Below, piece after piece: positions 52,722 to 64,000 of a DNA stretch of 64,000 bases (the stretch's first letter is position 1; the number at the start of each line of letters is the position of its first letter). This stretch comes from Candidatus Latescibacterota bacterium (GTDB lineage Bacteria > Latescibacterota > UBA2968 > UBA8231), in contig CBDCNM010000002.1 of assembly GCA_965219385.1 (NCBI GenBank), positions 2,784,936 through 2,848,935 on the forward strand. The letters are read 5' to 3'. Below the pieces are notes generated by a model that worked only from the letters and a program-made list of their open reading frames with translations, was not told where the DNA came from and did not search any database. The position numbers and the translations under genes are program-made.

Positions 52722-53708
52722 ATGGATGAGCGGTATTTGGTGACAGGTGCGCTTGGTTGCGTGGGTGCATGGGCGGTTCGCCGGCTGGTCCGCGAGGGGG
52801 TGCCGGTGTGGACCTACGACCTGGGCGGCGACCCTTACCGGTTGAGGACGATCATGGCGGACGAAGCGCTGGATCAGGTGCGGTTGCTCGAGGGCGACAT
52901 CGCGGATCTGGGCGGGTTCGAGCAGGTCGTGGTCGACCGCGGTATTACTCATATCCTGCACCTGGCGGCCATGCAGGTGCCTCTGGTCCGGGCCGATCCA
53001 GTGCGCGGGGCCGAGGTGAACGTCGTGGGGACCACCGTCGTCTTCGAGACGGCCGCGCGGCATCGCAACCAGGTCCAGAACCTGGTCTTTGCAAGCTCGT
53101 TCGGGGTGTACGGCGAACCGGAAGCCTACCCGCCGGGGCCGCTCGCCCACGACGCTCCGTTGCTGCCTCCGACCCTCTACGGGGTGTTCAAGCAGTGCAA
53201 CGAGGGCACGGCTCAGGTCTACTGGCGGGAGCAGTCGGTCCACAGCATCGGTCTGCGCCCGTGCGTGGTGTACGGACCGGGTCGCGATCAGGGCTGGACC
53301 TCCACCCCCACCAAGGCCATGCTGGCCGCCGCGCTCGGTCGCGAGTACGAGATCACCTATGGCGGCACCCTCGTCTATCACCACGCCGATGATGTCGCCG
53401 CCGCCTTTATCGCCGCGGCCAGAACCAGGCTGGAAGGCGCCCCGGTCTACAATCTGGGGGGCAGCACGGTTTCCATGGCCCAGATCGTCGCTGCAATCGA
53501 GGAGGTCATCCCTGAGTCGGCGGGCAAGATTGGATTCGACCCGCCGCCGCTGCCGCATCCTTCGAGCGCCGCTGACAGCGCCCTGAACCAGGCCCTTGGG
53601 CCCCTCCAGTACCGGTCGCTGGTCCAGGGAGTCCGGGATACTGTAGAGGTCTTCCGCACTGCCCTGGAGGCCGGTCGCCTCGACCTTGAGCGGGCTCTAC
53701 GTACCTAG
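52722..53708 (+). CDS. NAD-dependent epimerase/dehydratase (extended SDR)
   Basis: LVTGALGCVG, HLAA, ASS, YGVFK (YxxxK), VYGPG. Confidence 0.92.
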   Translation: MDERYLVTGALGCVGAWAVRRLVREGVPVWTYDLGGDPYRLRTIMADEALDQVRLLEGDIADLGGFEQVVVDRGITHILHLAAMQVPLVRADPVRGAEVNVVGTTVVFETAARHRNQVQNLVFASSFGVYGEPEAYPPGPLAHDAPLLPPTLYGVFKQCNEGTAQVYWREQSVHSIGLRPCVVYGPGRDQGWTSTPTKAMLAAALGREYEITYGGTLVYHHADDVAAAFIAAARTRLEGAPVYNLGGSTVSMAQIVAAIEEVIPESAGKIGFDPPPLPHPSSAADSALNQALGPLQYRSLVQGVRDTVEVFRTALEAGRLDLERALRT

Positions 53709-53709
53709 C

Positions 53710-55338
<1,629 letters not shown>

Positions 55339-55477
55339 GTCAGGCTCCTTCAGCGCTTGATATTGCGTCCATGGTTCGTGCCGTATTCCAGGAGTACGAG
55401 TTCAGGTTCGCCTGTCCTCGGCATCCGCCCGCCTCCGCAACTGCCCGAGGCGGCGCCCCAGCTTCTCCACTTCTTCT

Positions 55478-55795
55478 TCAATCAACCTCAATTCGTCGTC
55501 GACGCTTATCTCGCCGTTCAGGGCCATTGTGCTTGCGCCACTCTTCGGCCTCGCGCTCGGCCTGGGCCTCGTCCATCGAGTTGATGATCACGCCGATGAA
55601 CAGATTCAGCATGATCACGGTGCCCGGCAGCACGAAGGACACGAAGTAGAGAGCCCCGCCGAGGACCGGCAGCCCCTTTGAGGCCTGGCGCAACGGGGCC
55701 AGGGCAAAATCCTGGTAGCCCGGGTAGGCATCGCTGCCGTACATCTGAATGTACATCACGTCGGTCCAATCCTCCAGGGGCACCACCCGGAACAT
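55478..55795 (-). pseudogene. C-terminal remnant of a bacterial voltage-gated Na/Ca channel (NaChBac-like)
   Basis: [14 protein letters not shown] (filter, cf. TLESW/TLEDW) and S6 YFVSFV...[13 protein letters not shown]1-S5 absent. Confidence 0.8.
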
Positions 55796-55828
55796 TAAGA
55801 AGCCGTCTTAAAATTCCGGGTGCACACC

Positions 55829-56533
55829 TCATGCGAACCGCTCCCGCTGCTGCAGGCGCAGCAATCCGAATAGCGTCGCCAGCACGGCCCCGACCAGCAG
55901 GTATGCCCGGTTGTAGAACGTCGTCGCTTGCTGGACGATGGATTCGTAGGCTTCCACCTGCGCGAAGGGATTGTGGTACAGGTTCCAGCGGCTGCCCTCC
56001 AGAGGCTCCGTCAGCATCCAGAAAAACAAGCCCAGGACCAGCAACAGAGCGGCGGTGCCGTTGCCGCTGCGGATTAGCGTCGCCAGCATGAAGCCCAGGC
56101 TGCTCAGGAAGGAGATGGGAAACATTAGATGGAAGACCATGGACCACACCGAGAAGTCGGCCAGGGCCATCCTGCACAGGGCCGCCAGCAGCAGCAACAT
56201 AGCGGCGATCACCAGCTGCTGCACGCCGTGGCGGGCCAGCCACACTTTGTAGCGGTAGTCGGGAATAGCGAAAAGCGTCTCCAGCATGCGACCGTCCACA
56301 TCGCTCTGCACACAGTAAGCCGACGGGTAGAACATCAGCAGCACCCCCGGCACCAGCAGGAAGTAGTAGACTAGGGCCGCGCTCGGTGGCACCTCTTCCT
56401 GGGCCGTGTGCACGACGACTACGGTGCAGAAGATGAGCAGCGCCAGCAGCAGGAAGTAGATGAACTTGCCGGCGAACACCTGGCTGGCACTATAGCGCGC
56501 GAAGGCGGCCATACTCCGGAACCGGGCCAGCAT
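55829..56533 (-). CDS. ABC-2-type permease-like membrane protein
   Basis: ~6 TM segments; DVDGRMLETLFAIP resembles the ExExGTLExL..P coupling motif; start overlaps the upstream stop. Confidence 0.65.
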   Translation of the reverse strand: MLARFRSMAAFARYSASQVFAGKFIYFLLLALLIFCTVVVVHTAQEEVPPSAALVYYFLLVPGVLLMFYPSAYCVQSDVDGRMLETLFAIPDYRYKVWLARHGVQQLVIAAMLLLLAALCRMALADFSVWSMVFHLMFPISFLSSLGFMLATLIRSGNGTAALLLVLGLFFWMLTEPLEGSRWNLYHNPFAQVEAYESIVQQATTFYNRAYLLVGAVLATLFGLLRLQQRERFA

Positions 56534-59500
56534 CAGGCCGGCCTCTCCAGCAGCCAGAGGTACGAGTCCTCCAGGGTCGGGGTCACTTCTTCGGCCTCGG
56601 GTAGGGGCTGCTCGTCCGCCAGGATGCGCACCCGGATGGATTCGCCGTCCCGCATGTGGTGCACGATCCGGGTGCGATGGCGCAACTCCTCCAGGCGTTC
56701 TTCGCTGATCCGTGCCTGCCAGACCGCACCCCTGGTCAGCTCCACCATCTCCCGCGGGCTGCCGTGGAAGCGGACCTGGCCCTGGCCCATGACGACCAGA
56801 TGGTTACAGGAACTCGAAATATCCTCGATGATGTGGGTCGAGAAGATCACCACCCGGTTGCGGGCCAGTTCGGCCAGCAGGTTGCGGAAGCGGATGCGCT
56901 CGCGCGGATCCAGCCCCGCCGTGGGCTCGTCCACCAGCAGGATGCGGGGCAGGCGCAGGAGCGTCTGGGCGATCCCGACCCGTTGCTTCATCCCTCCCGA
57001 GAACCCGCCGATCTTGCTGTCCCCGCTCTCCTCGAGGTGCACCGACCGCAGGGCGCCCTCCACCACTTCCCGCCGCTCTCTGGAGTCCCACTGTCCCTTC
57101 AACAGCGCCTGGTAGTCCAGGAACTGGCGGGCGGTCATGTTCTCGTAGGTGCCAAACTCCTGGGGCAGGTAGCCGATCAAAGCCTGCAGCTCCTCCCGCT
57201 GTTGGGTCAGATCGATGCCGTTGATGCGCACCTTCCCCAGGCTCTGCTCCAGTATGCCGCAGACGATGCGCATCAGCGTGGTCTTACCGGCGCCATTGGG
57301 CCCCACCAGACCAAACATGCCGCTCTCGATCCTCAGGGACACTTGTTCCACGGCGGTGAATGGACGCTTGCGTTTGCCGATGAGGGGTAGCGCTCCTACC
57401 AGCAAATAGAAGGCGCGGCGGCTGCGCCGGAAGCGACCGGTTATGGCATCGACATTCACCACGCCGCTGTGCAACCACCGCACGCCCCGGTTTACCACTG
57501 CTCCGAGGTACCATACTGCCCCCGCTGTGATCACCAGAGGCATATCGTCCCCCCTGTTGCGGAACCACAACACGTGCGCCAGGGGCAGCAGCCAGTAGCA
57601 CAGGTGGTAGAGCAGACGTGTAGTGCGGTGCAGGAAGCCGGCTCCCCGCGGCAGCCAGATCCACGCCAGGCTCAGAACGTGGACGTAGAAGGCCACGGAC
57701 AGGATGATGGTCCAGACCGCGCTCTCCTGGTACAGGTAGACGAAGTAGAAATGGAAGGCGAGCACGGGCAGTCGCCATGCCAGTGCGGCCCGGCGTCCAC
57801 CCTGATTGTCGCCCGCGTCCGGCTGGTGCTGTGCCTGGCGCTCGCCGCGACCCCATTGCCGCGCGAAGCGGGAGCGCTCATCGTACACCTTGACCACATT
57901 ATCGATCGAGATCTGCAGCGGCACCCCTTCCGGGATCAAAGCGGCCCGGCTGCGACGCAGACTCGACCGCGCGAACCAGGTGAACGCCGGTACCAGACCC
58001 AACAGGACGATGCCGTCGGCGAATTGCCAGAAGGTGGAGTCCACGTTGTGGTGTATCAGGGCGGCGCCGGCGGCCAGGATCGCCAACTGCACCAGATTGA
58101 TCCACCAGTCCAGCTGCCCCAACCACGCCACAGCCGTGGCCAGTCCGAAGTAAACCGTTGGCACCAGCACCAGGGTAAAAACCGTCCCCGCCACCAGGCC
58201 GCCGATCACGGCGATGGCGAAGGGGGCGCCAATGGTGGCCACGTACTCGGCCTTGCCCATGGCCAGGGGCAGCATGGCCAGGATGGTAGACAGGGCCGTG
58301 ATCAGAATCGGCCGCACCCTGACCTGCCCGGCCGCCAGTAGCGCCCGTCCCAACCGGTACCCCTGCCGTTGCAGCAGGCGGGCGTAGTCGATCAGCATGA
58401 TGCCGTTGTTGACCACCACGCCCAGGAGGATGAGGAAGCCCACCAAGGCATTGGCGTTGAAGAGCGAGTTGCCCGTCAGGATCAGGCCCCACAGGGCGCC
58501 GATGGTGGCCAGCGGCAGGGTTATCATCATGGCCAGAGGGGCCACCAGAGACTCGAATACCGCGGCCAGGATCATGTAAATGAGCACCACCGACGCCCCG
58601 ATCAGGAAGTAAAAGGCGGAAAGGTCGGTCTCGTCATGCACTACCTCGATTGACATTCCCGGCGGCAGGGACAGATCGGCGGCCAGCCGATCCACGGCCG
58701 CCCGGGCCTCGTCCAGCAGGTCGTTCGTCCCGGTGATTTCCTCCTCGAACTGGTAGGTCAGCTCTGCTTCCCTTTGCTGGTTCACCCGGTTGAAACCGCC
58801 GTATCCTTGCGCATAGACCAGGTCGGCCAGCTGCAGCAAGGGCACGTCACCCCCGTCCACCGTGCCGACCCGCAAGCGGCGCAAATCTTCGATCCGGCGC
58901 TGCGGATATCCCGTGCTCGTCAACGCCACCTTGATCGGGTCGGACCCTCTCATCACCTGGACCGAAGGGTTCAACTGGGGCTGGAAGCCCGACAGGGCCG
59001 CGGCGATCGCGTTAGGCTGGACCCCGAAGTGGGATATGGCCGTCCGGTCGATCAGTAGATCGATTTCCGGTTGGCCCCGATTGATACCTGGCGACGAATA
59101 GCGGACCCCGGGTTGCCGCTCCAGATTGTAGCGGATGTCGTCGATGATGGTCTTCACCAGATCCATACTACTGCCGCGCACGACGATGCGCTCGCTCGCC
59201 TCGCCAATTCCGAGCAGGCGTTGAAAGGCCCGGCCACCACCTGGACCACCGCCCCTGCCGCCGTAGCGCGGGTCGGTCCGCGGCTGTTCCCAGGAGAGAT
59301 GAACCTGCGGGAAGGCTTTCCTGAGCCGGTCGTAGATCTCCTTCTTGATCGCCGCCAGGTTGCGCCGGGCGATTTTCTGGTAGCCCTCCTTTAATTCGAA
59401 AGCCAGCCGTAGGTTGTCGACTTCGATGTCGATGCGTCGCTTTGCCACCTCCTCGATGTCCGCCAGACGCGCGTCCATTCTCCGGGCCTGTTCATCGGCC

Positions 59501-61215
59501 AGCTGCAGGGTCATTCCTCCGGGTATGGCAGCATACAGATCGAAGCTGGTCAGCTCTACTTCCACGGGGCTGTTGACGCTGACCGTCAGGCTCAGAAGAA
59601 GGCTGACGAGGAAAGCGACCACTGCAATGCCCGTGGTCCGTCCCGGAAAACGCATGCACGACTTGAGCAGCAGCGAGTAGATCTGCACCATGCGGTGACG
59701 CTGCGACACGGCGTTGAAGGTGCGCGACCGGTCGGTTGGGCGGCGGGCGAACAAGCGATAGGTGAACACCGGGATCAGCAGCATGGCCACCAGCAGCGAT
59801 ACCAGCAAGGTGCAGATGATGGATACTCCGACCTGCTGTCCCAGGAGGCGCACCAGAAAATTGTCGGAGAAGACGAAGGGGAGAAACACGCACACCGTGG
59901 TCAGCGTCGTCGCCAACACCGCCCGCCACACCTGCGCTACCCCGGTGACCACCGCCTCGTGTGCCTGGCGCCCACGCCCCAGCTGCCGGTAGATATTTTC
60001 CAGCACCACAATGCTGTTGTCCAGCAGCATGCCCACGGCTATGGCGATGCCCACCAGGGATAGCATGTTGAGGCTTATGTCGAAGGCGTAGAACAGGTTC
60101 ATGGCGATCAGCATTGAAATCGGTATGGCCGCCGCCACGATCGCCACCAGGGGCAGATTGCGCAGGAACACCCAGAGGATGCCGACCGCCAGCAGCCCGC
60201 CCACCACGGCCAGCGCCTTGATATCGCCGATGTTTTCCTCGATCGCCTCGGCGGTGTCGCTCTGGATCACCAGTTCGACGCCGTCCGGATCCAGGTTCCG
60301 ATTCAACTCGTCCACCACCTTGCGCGTCGCCCGCGACAGGGCCAGCAGGTTGGCCTGGCGGTCGCTGACCAGGGTGATGGAGACCGCTTCCATACCGTTG
60401 ATGCGGGCGATGCTCTCGCGCAGGGCCCCCCCCTCCACCACGGTGGCGATCTGCCCCAGCCACAGCGGACCCTCGGCGCGAACGATGGTCTCTTTTAGGT
60501 CCTCTATGGAGCGCAGATCGCTGGAAAGGTTGACGAAGATCCGCTGGCCCCCGTTCTCCACCTGACCCAGGAAGCGACGGGGGCGAGAGGATTGGGAGAT
60601 CCGCGTCTCTACCTCGGCCAGGGTCAGGCCGTGGCTGTGCATGATTTCTTCGCTGAGCAGCACCTCCACCAGCTGCTGGCGACCCCCGTACACCGCCACG
60701 TTCGCCATCCCTTCCACGCTTTGCAGATCCGGCACTACCTTTTCGTCCACCACATTGCGAATCTGATCCAGGGTACCCACCCCGCGGGCCTGCAGCGACA
60801 TGAACTGACTGGCCAGTTGTTCGGTGTCGATCTTGAGCACCATGGCCCGGAAATCATCGCCCAGCTGGGCCCGGGTGGCGGCGACGCGTTCCTCCAGCTT
60901 GAGGAAGGCGTACTGCTGAGCGCTCCGCCGGGTGTAATAGACGAACAGAGTCGCCTGCTGCTGTTCTATGTACGACTCGATCCTTTCTATGTCCTCCAGA
61001 CCCGCGATGGCGCTCTCCAGAGGGATCACCGCCTGCCGTTCGATGAAGTGCGGGTCGGCGTCGCGAGCGCTCTGTACCTGCACCACGAGCATGGGCAGCT
61101 CCGCGGCGGGGATGAGCTCCACGGCCAGACGGTCGTAGGACACCGCCCCCAGCAGGCATCCTCCGATCAGGAGCATGCACACCAGCACCGGTCTGTGGAT
61201 GAAGAAGGCAATCAC
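56533..61215 (-). CDS. RND (AcrB-like) permease fused to a C-terminal ABC ATPase domain
   Basis: RND: FIHRPV, GMLLDNSIVVLEN, AVFESL, GVVVNNGI, RVRPILIT; ABC: GPNGAGKT, YLPQEF, FSGGMKQR, ILLVDEP, FSTH. Confidence 0.9.
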   Translation of the reverse strand: MIAFFIHRPVLVCMLLIGGCLLGAVSYDRLAVELIPAAELPMLVVQVQSARDADPHFIERQAVIPLESAIAGLEDIERIESYIEQQQATLFVYYTRRSAQQYAFLKLEERVAATRAQLGDDFRAMVLKIDTEQLASQFMSLQARGVGTLDQIRNVVDEKVVPDLQSVEGMANVAVYGGRQQLVEVLLSEEIMHSHGLTLAEVETRISQSSRPRRFLGQVENGGQRIFVNLSSDLRSIEDLKETIVRAEGPLWLGQIATVVEGGALRESIARINGMEAVSITLVSDRQANLLALSRATRKVVDELNRNLDPDGVELVIQSDTAEAIEENIGDIKALAVVGGLLAVGILWVFLRNLPLVAIVAAAIPISMLIAMNLFYAFDISLNMLSLVGIAIAVGMLLDNSIVVLENIYRQLGRGRQAHEAVVTGVAQVWRAVLATTLTTVCVFLPFVFSDNFLVRLLGQQVGVSIICTLLVSLLVAMLLIPVFTYRLFARRPTDRSRTFNAVSQRHRMVQIYSLLLKSCMRFPGRTTGIAVVAFLVSLLLSLTVSVNSPVEVELTSFDLYAAIPGGMTLQLADEQARRMDARLADIEEVAKRRIDIEVDNLRLAFELKEGYQKIARRNLAAIKKEIYDRLRKAFPQVHLSWEQPRTDPRYGGRGGGPGGGRAFQRLLGIGEASERIVVRGSSMDLVKTIIDDIRYNLERQPGVRYSSPGINRGQPEIDLLIDRTAISHFGVQPNAIAAALSGFQPQLNPSVQVMRGSDPIKVALTSTGYPQRRIEDLRRLRVGTVDGGDVPLLQLADLVYAQGYGGFNRVNQQREAELTYQFEEEITGTNDLLDEARAAVDRLAADLSLPPGMSIEVVHDETDLSAFYFLIGASVVLIYMILAAVFESLVAPLAMMITLPLATIGALWGLILTGNSLFNANALVGFLILLGVVVNNGIMLIDYARLLQRQGYRLGRALLAAGQVRVRPILITALSTILAMLPLAMGKAEYVATIGAPFAIAVIGGLVAGTVFTLVLVPTVYFGLATAVAWLGQLDWWINLVQLAILAAGAALIHHNVDSTFWQFADGIVLLGLVPAFTWFARSSLRRSRAALIPEGVPLQISIDNVVKVYDERSRFARQWGRGERQAQHQPDAGDNQGGRRAALAWRLPVLAFHFYFVYLYQESAVWTIILSVAFYVHVLSLAWIWLPRGAGFLHRTTRLLYHLCYWLLPLAHVLWFRNRGDDMPLVITAGAVWYLGAVVNRGVRWLHSGVVNVDAITGRFRRSRRAFYLLVGALPLIGKRKRPFTAVEQVSLRIESGMFGLVGPNGAGKTTLMRIVCGILEQSLGKVRINGIDLTQQREELQALIGYLPQEFGTYENMTARQFLDYQALLKGQWDSRERREVVEGALRSVHLEESGDSKIGGFSGGMKQRVGIAQTLLRLPRILLVDEPTAGLDPRERIRFRNLLAELARNRVVIFSTHIIEDISSSCNHLVVMGQGQVRFHGSPREMVELTRGAVWQARISEERLEELRHRTRIVHHMRDGESIRVRILADEQPLPEAEEVTPTLEDSYLWLLERPA

Positions 61216-61228
61216 GATGGCGTCGTTC

Positions 61229-64000
61229 TCACATGGGTCTGGATTGCAGCCGGTCGCCGCGCGCCAGCAGGTGATAGGCGCAGGGGATCACGGCAAGCGT
61301 GAGGGCGGTGGAGGTGACAAGGCCACCGATCACGGCAACGGCCATGGGGGCGCGCAGCGCGGCGCCCTCCCCGGCGCCGATGGCCAGGGGCAAAAGCGCC
61401 AGCATGGTAGTCGCGCTGGTCATCGCGATCGGCCGGATGCGCGTCTGACCGGCGCCGAGAATGGCTTCCCGCAGCTCCTGCCCCGAGCGGCGGTTCTGAT
61501 TGATGCGGTCCACCAGTATGATGGAGTCGTTGACGGCGATGCCGGCCAGCATGATCACCCCGATGAAGGACATCACGTTGAGCGGCATCGACAAGGCCAT
61601 GAGTCCAAGGACCGCTCCGACGCCCGCCAGCGGGATGGTCAACAGGATGACGAAGGGATGCACCAGGGACTCGAACTGCGCCGCCATCACCATGTACACC
61701 ATCACCACGGCCAGTATCAGGGCGAAAAGCAGGTTTTCGAAGGCATCCTGGCGCAGCTTTTCCTCGCCGGTCACCTCGTAGCCGTACTCGGGCGGCCACG
61801 CAATCGTGGCCAGTTCCGCCTCTACCTGGGCCGCGACCTGGTCGAAAGGCCGGTCTGAACTCAGGTGGGCGCTTACCGTGGACGTGCGCATCTGATTGTT
61901 CCGCGTTATCGCCCGGGGCGACAGGGAGGGAACCAGCCGCGCCACCTCGTCGAGGCGCACGCGTCGGCCCTCCGGCGCCTCCAGCATCACATTTTCCAGC
62001 TCCTGCAGCGACAGGCGCGGCCGTTGGATGACGATGTCGCTGTACTCGCCCAGCTGCTGAAGCTGCCCCGCCGCCTGCCCCGAAAGCAGGTGCTCCAGCT
62101 GGTTGCCTATGGCGTCGATCTGTATGGAGTGCTGCGCCGCACGGGTGCGGTCGATCTCCAGGTCTATCTGGGGGTGGCCCTCGCCCAGGCCGGTTTCGAC
62201 GTTGGCGAGACCGTTCATCCCGGCCAGCCGCTCCTCCACCTGGCCGGCCAGCTCGGTGAGGATCTCCAGATCCTGCCCCTTGATTTCTACCTGCAGCGGC
62301 GCCGCCGTGCGCCCGAGGCTGATCTCCAGGGCCGTCTCCTGCTGCACGAACCGCGCCTCCACATCCGGCAGCGCCTTTAGCTCCGCGCCCAGGGCGGCAA
62401 TCAGCGCGGTCGGTGCCAGCGAACTGGCCGGCTCGAAGATGATGTGGATGGCGGCGCTGTTCTCATCCGCCAGCAGATCCCGCACGTCGGTGCTGCTCCC
62501 GGCGGGACCCACCCGCGCGTAGAGGTGTCGCAGGTGAGTGCCGAAGTTCTGCGTCAGGAAAGTTTCGAGGTTGCGGACCACACCCTCGGTGCGGTCCAGG
62601 TGCGTTCCCTCGGCCAGGGTCAGTTCTACCGACAGCTCACCGCGGCCGGTCCGCGGCATGAACTCGCTGCCCAGCATCGGCAGCAGCGCGGCCGTGCCGG
62701 CCACCAGAAGCAGGCCCGCAAGCAGCACCGGGATGCGGTGCTTCAGCAAGCCCTGCAACAGGCTGGCGTAGCGCGGAAAGTGGACGGCATTCACCGTTGC
62801 GCCGCGGCCCTTTCCGAGTAAACGCGAGCACAACATGGGGATGACGACCATGGCGACGAAGAGGGAGGACAGCAGCGAGAACGCCACTGTCCACGCTTGT
62901 TCCCGGAAGAGTTCCCCGGCGGCGCCGTGGAGGTAGACGATGGGAAGGAAGACGACGATGGTGGTTGCCGTCGAGCTGGTGATCGCGCCGCCGACCTCGC
63001 CCGCGCCCAGCACCGCTGCGTCCTTCAGGGGGGCGCCGTCCTCCAGCTTTCTGAAGATGTTTTCCAACACCACGATGGCGTTGTCCACCAGCATGCCGGC
63101 ACCTAGGGCCAGACCGCCGAGGGTCATCAGGTTCAGCGACAGGTCGCCGAAGTACATCAGGTTGAAGGTAGCGACGATGGAAATGGGGATGGCGATGCTG
63201 ACCACCGCCGTCACTCCGAGGCGTCGCAGGAACAGGAACAACACCAGCATCGCCAGGAAAATGCCGAGCAGTCCGGCCTGCTCTACCTCGGCGACCGCCG
63301 CCTCGATGAAGCGGGCCTGGTCCTGCACCACCTCGATCCGGTATCCCGGTAGCGTCCGTCGCAGCACCTCTAGCTGCTGGTGGATGCTGCCGGCCGCGTC
63401 AATGGTGTTGAAACGCGCCTCCTTGTATATCTCCAGGCCGATGCAGCGCCTCCCGTCCAGGCGCACCACGTTCTCCGGCTCGCTTAGAATGGTGCGCACC
63501 TGGGCCACTTCGCGCAGAGGTACCGGGGTCTGCTCAACCGTGGGCGCGGCCGTTGTGGCACCCGTCCGGGCCGCTGTTTCCGGGGTCCTGGCGGCTACGA
63601 TCAGATGGTTCAGTTCCTCCGGAGAGGCGAACTCCCCCACCCCTTTGATGAGGTAGCGGCGCCCCATCTCCACGATGGATCCCCCCACCGTGTTGCGGTT
63701 GGCATTCTCGATCGTCGACTTCAGCTGCTCGGCCGTAATGCCGTAGGCCTCCAGGGTGTAGGCATCGGTCCGCACTTCCACCTGGCGCCGCCGCTCCCCC
63801 ACCAGTTCCACCGCCGCGACTCCCGGCAGCCGAATCAACTCGGTGCGAATGATGTTCTCCGCGGTCTGGCGCAGGGCGTCCAGACCGCTCACTTCCGGGT
63901 GGTAGAAGGCGGCCACCACCACCGGCCGGGCATTGGGATCGTGCTGGCTGACCGCGACCTCCTCCGCGTTCGAGCGCTGCGCCTGATCGGCCATCATCTT
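61229..64000 (-). CDS. RND (AcrB-like) permease, 5' end beyond the window
   Basis: GMLVDNAIVVLEN, VVFLP, AAQFES, GIAVNDSI, RIRPIAMT, PMAVAVIGGL. Confidence 0.93.
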   Translation of the reverse strand, partial: KMMADQAQRSNAEEVAVSQHDPNARPVVVAAFYHPEVSGLDALRQTAENIIRTELIRLPGVAAVELVGERRRQVEVRTDAYTLEAYGITAEQLKSTIENANRNTVGGSIVEMGRRYLIKGVGEFASPEELNHLIVAARTPETAARTGATTAAPTVEQTPVPLREVAQVRTILSEPENVVRLDGRRCIGLEIYKEARFNTIDAAGSIHQQLEVLRRTLPGYRIEVVQDQARFIEAAVAEVEQAGLLGIFLAMLVLFLFLRRLGVTAVVSIAIPISIVATFNLMYFGDLSLNLMTLGGLALGAGMLVDNAIVVLENIFRKLEDGAPLKDAAVLGAGEVGGAITSSTATTIVVFLPIVYLHGAAGELFREQAWTVAFSLLSSLFVAMVVIPMLCSRLLGKGRGATVNAVHFPRYASLLQGLLKHRIPVLLAGLLLVAGTAALLPMLGSEFMPRTGRGELSVELTLAEGTHLDRTEGVVRNLETFLTQNFGTHLRHLYARVGPAGSSTDVRDLLADENSAAIHIIFEPASSLAPTALIAALGAELKALPDVEARFVQQETALEISLGRTAAPLQVEIKGQDLEILTELAGQVEERLAGMNGLANVETGLGEGHPQIDLEIDRTRAAQHSIQIDAIGNQLEHLLSGQAAGQLQQLGEYSDIVIQRPRLSLQELENVMLEAPEGRRVRLDEVARLVPSLSPRAITRNNQMRTSTVSAHLSSDRPFDQVAAQVEAELATIAWPPEYGYEVTGEEKLRQDAFENLLFALILAVVMVYMVMAAQFESLVHPFVILLTIPLAGVGAVLGLMALSMPLNVMSFIGVIMLAGIAVNDSIILVDRINQNRRSGQELREAILGAGQTRIRPIAMTSATTMLALLPLAIGAGEGAALRAPMAVAVIGGLVTSTALTLAVIPCAYHLLARGDRLQSRPM

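Follow-up and report, generated by a model that had tools for sequence, protein, structure and literature searches.

A candidate ABC-2 transporter covalently tethered to a tripartite RND efflux pump in Candidatus Latescibacterota

Introduction

Resistance-nodulation-division (RND) pumps and ATP-binding cassette (ABC) transporters are the best-studied efflux engines, and textbooks describe them as separate machines with separate energy sources. How the two might work as one is the question raised by a gene in a 64,000-nucleotide stretch of DNA from a Candidatus Latescibacterota bacterium (assembly GCA_965219385.1, contig CBDCNM010000002.1, positions 2,784,936 to 2,848,935), which is referred to below as the window and to whose positions the coordinates refer unless another source is given. 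A single open frame in this window encodes an RND permease, here called RND2, followed by a complete ABC nucleotide-binding domain (NBD). An earlier note, made from the letters of the DNA, had described this frame and proposed that ATP-driven steps and steps driven by the proton-motive force (PMF) are physically coupled in its product.

The fusion gene is part of a seven-gene cassette that most likely encodes the parts of one heterodimeric ABC-2 exporter, with two NBDs and two transmembrane domains (TMDs), plus one MdtABC-like tripartite RND pump. The reading that we favor, with little more than even confidence, is that a covalent tether joins an ABC-2 transporter to a heteromeric tripartite RND pump, the two serving export in two steps. 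A conserved natural RND-ABC fusion offers an experimental way into the coupling of export steps at the inner membrane with those across the envelope, illustrates how an ABC motor of two-fold symmetry may be accommodated by a three-fold RND trimer, and poses the question of what function a membrane insertion has inside an NBD.

Results

One open frame encodes an RND permease and an ABC ATPase

56533..61215, minus strand: RND2-NBD fusion gene (product P0001), GTG start, 1560 amino acids, span including the stop codon
58147..61215, minus strand: RND permease module, residues 1-1023, full-length match to Pfam ACR_tran
56536..57360, minus strand: NBD core and C-terminal domain, residues 1286-1560, ABC-2/NosF/TM_1403 class

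The permease part of the fusion is matched over residues 2-1023 by the Pfam family ACR_tran (PF00873; profile positions 2-1018 of 1021, E 3.1e-154, 515.6 bits against a cutoff of 28) and its hydropathy segments fall into the expected two blocks, which places it with RND superfamily permeases of the AcrB/AcrD/AcrF type. Its top equivalog-type NCBIfam matches are to MdtB/MuxB and MdtC models, but its scores against curated multidrug RND permease subfamilies fall far below the cutoffs (460 versus 1250 bits for NF033617, 303.5 versus 1250 for NF000282, and 269 versus 1584 for the MdtB/MuxB model NF007798).

In the C-terminal part, ABC_tran (PF00005) matches residues 1290-1433 (E 4.4e-28, 99 bits against a cutoff of 25), and the motifs of an ABC ATPase are all present, namely (in fusion residue numbers) a Walker A at 1305 (GPNGAGKT), a Q-loop at 1350 (LPQEF), a signature at 1405 (FSGGMKQR), a Walker B with its Asp-Glu pair at 1425 (ILLVDEP) and an H-loop with its His at 1459 (STH). 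These motifs are invariant or nearly so among 28 aligned homologues, and the catalytic ones are all retained in 30/30 fused orthologues. The top NCBIfam matches of the fused NBD are GldA, DrrA and NodI-type ATPases, which belong to the ABC-2 class, and its structural class is that of TM_1403, NosF, ABCA and LptB. The arrangement differs from that of MacB-type proteins, as the NBD lies C-terminal to the RND permease and the predicted TMD is a separate protein with six transmembrane (TM) helices. Thus, Pfam matches and motifs bear out what the earlier note had read in this single frame, an AcrB-like permease, extra TM helices and a complete NBD whose five motifs it had listed; the extra helices are six in number and lie between residues 1037 and 1249 in a structural model and by hydropathy.

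The earlier note had singled out positions 57900-58150 for a check of the reads, and had named a stop or misassembly between the domains, or homologues that are always split into two genes, as findings that would undo its proposal. In Logan contigs, single 6932-nt contigs from runs X2 and X3 each cover 55800-61300 with 0 differences and 0 gaps, and a contig from run X4 covers 56878-58266, thus bridging the junction without differences or indels; the contigs come from three separate studies, one run possibly being the window's own source. The frame at 56533..61215 has no stop or frameshift between its RND and NBD domains, and RND2 and NBD lie in one stop-to-stop frame in all 38 placeable loci among 39 related loci from named genomes. 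Misassembly and read-through are ruled out by these two lines of evidence. Both domains are also conserved, the NBD being among the best-conserved parts (~75% mean identity over 111 full-length homologues), and an artefact of any kind, be it misassembly, a frameshifted pseudogene or read-through of two genes, deserves almost no credence.

The architecture is widespread

In a homologue search that counted only the match to residues 1030-1560 and was restricted to proteins of 858-2730 amino acids, both PF00873 and PF00005 occur in one polypeptide in 120/120 clusters listed. The length is 1522-1621 amino acids in 111 of these 120 clusters, and the C-terminal part is 50-80% identical. Therefore the uncharacterised homologues that the earlier note had expected in databases, and for which it had suggested a search by domain architecture, are abundant. 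Their source-attached names cover groups such as Gemmatimonadota, Latescibacterota, Zixibacteria, Aminicenantes, Krumholzibacteria, Calditrichaceae, Spirochaetales and many Bacteroidota. The fusion also occurs in cultured bacteria, among them Marivirga tractuosa, M. sericea, Prolixibacter bellariivorans, Draconibacterium mangrovi, Maribellus maritimus, Bacteroides sp. 224 and Parabacteroides massiliensis. Public labels of these proteins are 'efflux RND transporter permease subunit' or 'AcrB/ABC-type multidrug transport system ATPase subunit'.

Within the window's own phylum, the linker and NBD module is found in 82 of 168 sampled genomes, one copy each (E <= 1e-90), and in 34 of 52 high-quality genomes. 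Its occurrence there is patchy by family (13/13, 28/31 and 19/22 genomes, and only 20/75 in the window's own family).

Adjacent genes are commonly fused, so the covalent link could be a tether that serves co-assembly or stoichiometry only, with two independent transporters joined by chance adjacency and no hand-over of substrate between them. We regard this as very unlikely, since the two parts share one frame in 38/38 loci across several phyla, the linker is conserved and family-specific, and convincing split forms were not found either by a search for shorter homologues or by a linker-only probe, although absence is not thereby proven. The search for shorter proteins returned only fragments, mostly on 2-5 kb contigs or labelled partial, with a few short homologues on longer contigs (e.g., P0154, P0169 and P0211); P0280, whose 526 amino acids start at the linker, may be either a true split form or a fragment. 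The linker-only probe of 1.84 billion cluster representatives gave 69 matches, of which 15 are at least 1550 amino acids long and always carry the linker at about 1025-1298, and 54 are shorter than 1150 amino acids, mostly with the alignment running to the protein ends, and so are fragment-like. The linker was not found in any other architecture among these 69 matches and, judged by them, is specific to this family.

A predicted membrane segment is inserted into the fused NBD

57946..58107, minus strand: two linker helices after TM12, residues 1037-1057 and 1061-1090 (AF2 model, hydropathy)
57883..57912, minus strand: NBD strand beta1 (ISIDNVVKVY), displaced from the remainder of the NBD, residues 1102-1111 (DSSP, model residues 83-92)
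57391..57870, minus strand: insertion within the NBD, residues 1116-1275, comprising a polar helix, four hydrophobic helices and a short helix

When fusion residues 1020-1560 were folded with AF2 from a 61-row alignment (mean pLDDT 83.8), the second linker helix was seen to end in Ser-Leu-Arg (1085-1087), in which S1085, L1086 and R1087 are invariant, and to be followed by an isolated strand. A polar helix comes next, followed by four hydrophobic, aromatic-rich helices (1138-1162, 1166-1186, 1194-1221 and 1225-1249), a short helix and the strand leading to Walker A. Alignments to solved NBDs start at model residues 79-83, opposite residue 1-2 of the solved chains; for example, TM_1403 (4yer_B) aligns 265 residues over model positions 79-540 (Z 27.8, root mean square deviation 3.9 A), and FtsE (8hd0_A) aligns 212 residues over 82-465. 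These starting points indicate that the isolated strand is beta1 of the NBD and that ~170 residues are inserted within the domain. In a BLASTP comparison with a free ABC ATPase (free NBD) encoded in the same cassette, residues 18-288 of the latter align to the fused core, and its first 17 are left without an adjacent partner.

The insertion is kept in 37 of 39 related loci by tblastn. The length and hydropathy of the six extra helices (Kyte-Doolittle means of 1.1-2.0 for the best 19 residues) suggest that they cross the membrane, and their even number (2 + 4) would leave all pieces of the NBD on the cytoplasmic side.

A divergent RND-NBD fusion lineage, represented by loci L045 (9968-14290, plus strand) and L049, is 26-29% identical to the fusion; in L045 the RND part is 26% identical and the insertion site holds only ~50 soluble residues. 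The two group next to the main fused clade with a support of 87, a tentative position that comes from a quick tree with SH-aLRT values only. This placement of a short-insert lineage hints that fusion preceded membrane insertion, and the lineage may represent an earlier or an alternative form of the fusion.

A candidate ABC-2 permease is predicted to dock on the fused NBD

55829..56533, minus strand: P0003, 234 amino acids, six TM helices, with an ATG that overlaps the fusion stop codon by 1 nt

P0003 has no match in Pfam or NCBIfam. Its AF2 model (pLDDT 88.3, pTM 0.86) has Foldseek neighbours that are almost all TMDs of the type-V/ABC-2 kind (NosY, PmtCD, CcmB, ABCG2, ABCG5/G8 and ABCA; TM-scores of 0.55-0.63), and the structural neighbours of the fused NBD include NosF (7osf_B) as well as TM_1403. 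From these models, P0003 is predicted to be a type-V (ABC-2) permease and the cognate TMD of the fused NBD.

A complex of fusion residues 1020-1560 with P0003, both supplied as alignments, was predicted in three runs and compared with three controls. The ipSAE values were 0.71, 0.72 and 0.68, versus 0.00 for the best of the controls; at least 79% of the contacts recur between runs, and the pLDDT of the partner is 78 or more. The mark used for this tool is reached by 116 of 157 solved complexes and by 2 of 215 mismatched pairs, a calibration that is approximate here as our own alignments were used. In the model, the NBD presents the groove formed by residues 1316-1381 around the Q-loop, plus residue 1417, which is the canonical coupling site, and P0003 contributes its N-terminal amphipathic helix (3-21), the TM2-TM3 coupling loop (81-97) and its C-terminus. 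This loop contains an invariant Glu85 and near-invariant Phe88, Gly89, Ile90, Pro91, Tyr93, Tyr95 and Lys96. Linker residues 1085 and 1088-1089, at the conserved Ser-Leu-Arg end of helix 2, are also modelled in contact with P0003.

The fusion belongs to a conserved seven-gene cassette

The window ends inside the gene upstream of the fusion, and the surrounding genome sequence was used to read the rest of the cassette. Conservation was counted by tblastn over 39 loci, with only loci that hold enough DNA on the relevant side evaluated.

Gene 1, same strand: free ABC ATPase (free NBD), 302 amino acids, 45% identical to the fused NBD; 30/33 evaluable loci, the three misses being loci that end right at the preceding gene
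Gene 2, G000:C2:2851862-2855455 = L005:13863-17456, minus strand: large ABC-2 membrane protein, ~1,100 amino acids after correction of its open reading frame (ORF); 32/33 evaluable loci
Gene 3, L005:12358-14274, minus strand: outer membrane factor (OMF), two OEP repeats, E 3.9e-42; 34/36 evaluable loci
Gene 4, same strand: membrane fusion protein (MFP), TIGR01730 at 161.5 bits against a cutoff of 94.9, HlyD_D23; 36/36 evaluable loci
Gene 5, 61229..64000, minus strand: RND1, unfused paralogue, 1033 amino acids, 5' end ~330 nt past the window end; 36/36 evaluable loci, immediately upstream of the fusion
Gene 6, 56533..61215, minus strand: RND2-NBD fusion
Gene 7, 55829..56533, minus strand: P0003; 34/36 evaluable loci, downstream of the fusion, one miss (L042) having a weaker 26% match

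The order of the genes is identical in all 26 loci that hold all seven. RND1 and RND2 are tandem paralogues, ~30% identical to each other and conserved in 36/36 loci, and the MFP and OMF are encoded together with the permeases, as in tripartite RND systems. The free and the fused NBD both keep Walker A, the Q-loop Gln, the SGG of the signature, the Walker B Asp-Glu and the H-loop His, and in a quick tree their clades show matching internal branching, which is consistent with co-inheritance.

The large ABC-2 protein has an N-terminal ABC-2-like block of six TM helices, followed by ~800 residues that end in a Golvesin_C domain. Its Pfam matches, to ABC2_membrane_2 (E 1.5e-4) and Golvesin_C, are weak, and a search of NCBIfam gave no match. 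Neighbours in a protein atlas carry the names 'xanthan lyase family' or 'ABC transporter permease' and, at 0.88, include fusions of an ABC-2 permease to an M1 peptidase; both are leads only. According to a passage of PMC3924187, fusions of the latter kind are filed as TC 3.A.1.145.

The longest ORFs of the OMF and large ABC-2 genes overlap by ~410 nt. Homology begins only at about residue 150 of the former and residue 78 of the latter, indicating that the true starts are internal and that the N-terminal extensions are artefacts of high-GC DNA.

Relay residues and an ATP-driven RND pump

The proton relay of AcrB consists of Asp407-Asp408 in TM4, Lys940 in TM10 and Arg971 in TM11. The corresponding positions were mapped via an alignment to MdtB (9lyq_B), which is the closest solved relative of RND2 (E 1.9e-72), and are given in P0001 numbering.

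399 (AcrB Asp407): Asp in 36/36 RND2, Asp in 35/35 RND1
400 (AcrB Asp408): Asn in 32/36 RND2, Asn in 34/35 RND1
936 (AcrB Lys940): Asn in 36/36 RND2, Asn in 34/35 RND1
937 (residue after AcrB Lys940): Asn in 35/36 RND2, Asn in 19 and Asp in 16 of 35 RND1
968 (AcrB Arg971): Arg in 36/36 RND2, Arg in 35/35 RND1

The fusion thus has Asp399-Asn400 in TM4, Asn936-Asn937 in TM10 and Arg968 in TM11, which is not a relay of the AcrB type, and one carboxylate (Asp399) and Arg968 are strictly kept in both paralogues. A loss of the relay specific to the fused subunit was considered and rejected, as RND1 has the same pattern; the unusual relay is therefore a trait of this RND lineage and not of the fused subunit.

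These residues bear on the possibility that the pump is an ATP-driven or ATP-gated RND permease. The fused NBD would then act through the linker and inserted helices on the RND part, replacing or gating a proton relay that has become weak, with P0003 in an accessory role. The covalent link directly after TM12, six extra helices that could pass on motion, a relay that lacks the equivalents of AcrB Asp408 and Lys940, and inserted helices that make no confident contact with P0003 all speak for such a pump. However, the relay pattern is shared by the unfused RND1 and so is not linked to the NBD, Asp399 and Arg968 are invariant, and a canonical ABC-2 TMD is predicted to fill the coupling groove of the NBD. 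In addition, an ABC NBD requires a partner NBD that cannot be supplied symmetrically by a three-fold RND trimer, and the operon holds a complete second NBD/TMD pair. On balance we consider an ATP-driven or ATP-gated RND pump decidedly unlikely.

Flanking genes and expression

Downstream of the cassette, a gap of 490 bp separates P0003 from an unrelated class I (iron-sulfur) fumarate hydratase of 542 amino acids (53710-55338, minus strand; Fumerase E 1e-78, Fumerase_C E 8e-86). A plus-strand ORF of 632 amino acids without a Pfam match (53686-55584) overlaps the fumarase, probably as a shadow frame of high-GC DNA. The cassette is preceded directly by an ORF of 560 amino acids (G000:C2:2856259-2857941 = L005:18261-19943, minus strand) with a weak, sub-cutoff match (E 2e-5) to GHL10, the Pfam family glycosyl hydrolase-like 10. 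No recurring family was found among 29 downstream ORFs of 10 loci, upstream flanks being mostly outside the fetched DNA. As the genes beyond the cassette vary between loci, the cassette is a self-contained unit.

A sponge metatranscriptome (X13) contains four short pieces identical to the fusion gene (57464-57654, 58352-58555, 58920-59078 and 59932-60101). Together with small shares of sequence words in metagenomes from sponges and seawater, these exact matches hint that the habitat is marine or associated with sponges; apart from X13, the small-share runs X10-X21 are uninformative on habitat.

Discussion

How might an RND permease make use of an ABC motor at its C-terminus? In the favored reading, that of an ABC-2 transporter tethered to a heteromeric RND pump, the C-terminus of RND2 carries an ABC-2-class ATPase that would be kept in the plane of the membrane by the linker helices and the four-helix insertion, and this NBD would serve its own type-V permease of six TM helices, P0003. 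The fused NBD and P0003 would join the cassette's other pair, free NBD and large ABC-2 protein, in a heterodimeric exporter, anchored covalently to an RND1/RND2 heterotrimer that works with the MFP and OMF. The ABC part would spend ATP to extract a substrate of amphipathic or lipid-like nature from the cytoplasm or the inner leaflet, and the tethered RND-MFP-OMF assembly would then take it over the periplasm and outer membrane. A trimer of one RND2 and two RND1 subunits would supply exactly one fused NBD, which would explain why there is a single free NBD and would reconcile the three-fold RND pump with the two-fold ABC transporter; the matching branching of the fused and free NBDs is as expected of co-inherited partners.

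This proposal keeps one part of what the earlier note had supposed about the coupling of ATP- and PMF-driven steps and gives up another. RND and ABC parts are indeed physically tethered, but the NBD, for which P0003 is a predicted TMD, does not have to drive the RND permease. The predicted ABC-2 fold of P0003 and its predicted docking in the groove oppose the idea of an NBD that has no TMD of its own and acts on the RND part, and the second NBD and second ABC-2 membrane protein encoded in the operon tell against the idea that it must do so. With P0003 as the predicted TMD and a second NBD/TMD pair in the cassette, an ABC-2 transporter tethered to an RND pump is a simpler proposal than an ATP-driven RND pump.

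Alternatively, the four ABC components could form two separate homodimeric ABC-2 transporters, one from two copies each of the fused NBD and P0003 and the other from two copies each of the free NBD and the large ABC-2 protein, the two RND2 subunits coming from a trimer with an RND2:RND1 ratio of 2:1 or bridging two trimers. Both NBDs have fully consensus ATP sites, as homodimers have, trimers of the MdtB2C type hold two copies of one paralogue, and the predicted docking of P0003 on the fused NBD does not need the other pair. The two kinds of NBD, fused and free, do not form sister clades, which also fits this arrangement. Against it, the fusion is inherited together with the free NBD and the large ABC-2 protein, in a fixed order and with a matching tree, which suggests one machine, and we consider two homodimers unlikely.

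Several observations weigh against a tethered heterodimeric exporter or limit what can be said of it. The separation of the fused and free NBD clades, just cited in favor of homodimers, is one of them, although it comes from the same quick tree with SH-aLRT values only. Proton coupling is not established, as the equivalents of Asp408 and Lys940 are missing in both RND paralogues, and the four inserted helices, for which the complex model gives no confident contact with P0003, have an unexplained role. The Foldseek E-values of P0003 are weak (best 0.026, none <=0.001) and, because NosFY-type complexes are already solved, the docking result shows likeness to them and is not proof of binding. With the queries used here, P0003, the OMF and the large ABC-2 protein were undetected beside the divergent fused variant L045. 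Flanking genes that differ from locus to locus leave the substrate without a clue, and the evidence for expression consists of four short pieces from one RNA library, in which carried-over DNA is possible.

A further, tentative reading is that of a dual-energy, envelope-spanning machine, in which ATP and an ion gradient drive consecutive, mechanically coupled steps of a single transport cycle that leads from the cytoplasm or inner leaflet to the exterior, with one heterodimeric ABC-2 transporter joined to a heterotrimeric RND pump by a single RND2 subunit; the four inserted helices would then be the coupling element between the two motors. We regard such a machine as possible but doubtful. If it exists, it would represent a new transporter class in Bacteroidota, Gemmatimonadota, Calditrichota, Latescibacterota and their relatives.

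Roughly half of the genomes sampled from this phylum carry the cassette, as a single copy, and it is found in many Bacteroidota, including cultured and gut-associated genera. Given this wide occurrence, its substrate is likely to matter for the envelope biology or the intrinsic tolerance of bacteria that are abundant in the environment and in hosts.

Comparison with known systems

A description of an RND-ABC fusion was not found in the full-text literature, coverage of which excludes subscription journals and TCDB. Passages of a comprehensive review of tripartite pumps (PMC8277102) and of two comparative transporter papers (PMC3924187; PMC7997004) likewise mention no such fusion. This agrees with the earlier note, whose author knew of no characterised transporter that joins RND and ABC parts.

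Like MdtABC-TolC and MuxABC-OpmB, the cassette has a tandem pair of RND permease genes together with one MFP and an OMF, and it is MdtB that most resembles RND2 among solved structures. MdtB is a subunit of a heteromeric RND pump with the stoichiometry MdtB2C. Unlike the Mdt and Mux systems, in which no subunit has an NBD, the cassette adds four ABC-type components, and its relay is Asp-Asn/Asn-Asn where theirs is Asp-Asp/Lys.

With type-V (ABC-2) transporters such as NosFY(D), PmtCD, CcmAB, Wzm-Wzt, ABCG and ABCA, the locus shares the class of the NBD, a predicted fold (that of P0003) and a predicted interface made by an N-terminal amphipathic helix and a coupling loop, and with TM_1403 it shares an extra C-terminal domain on the NBD. 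It differs from these exporters in that the NBD is fused to an RND permease, that beta1 is split off by a membrane insertion of ~170 residues, and that one cassette holds two different NBDs and two very different TMDs (234 and ~1,100 amino acids).

MacAB-TolC is similar in that an ABC ATPase is part of one system with an MFP and OMF. The MacB permease has four TM helices and a periplasmic domain. As described in the part of PMC8277102 that concerns MacB, its NBD is N-terminal and fused to the permease domain. The TMD proposed here is instead of the six-TM ABC-2 type, and the part that spans the periplasm consists of the RND permeases.

Cooperation between pumps in two steps is also known, EmrE and AcrAB being an example. 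Single-component pumps of the inner membrane and tripartite RND pumps are described, in the abstract of PMC4338810, as acting in turn to move substrates from the cytoplasm to the periplasm and from there to the outside. In such known cases the proteins are separate and the cooperation is kinetic, whereas here it would be hard-wired in one polypeptide.

Finally, NBD1 of CFTR also has a regulatory insertion early in an ABC NBD. That insertion is short and soluble, unlike the ~170 residues with four hydrophobic helices found here. The components of this cassette are thus of known kinds, and what sets it apart from the systems above is their combination in a covalent RND-ABC hybrid, which is not of a known kind.

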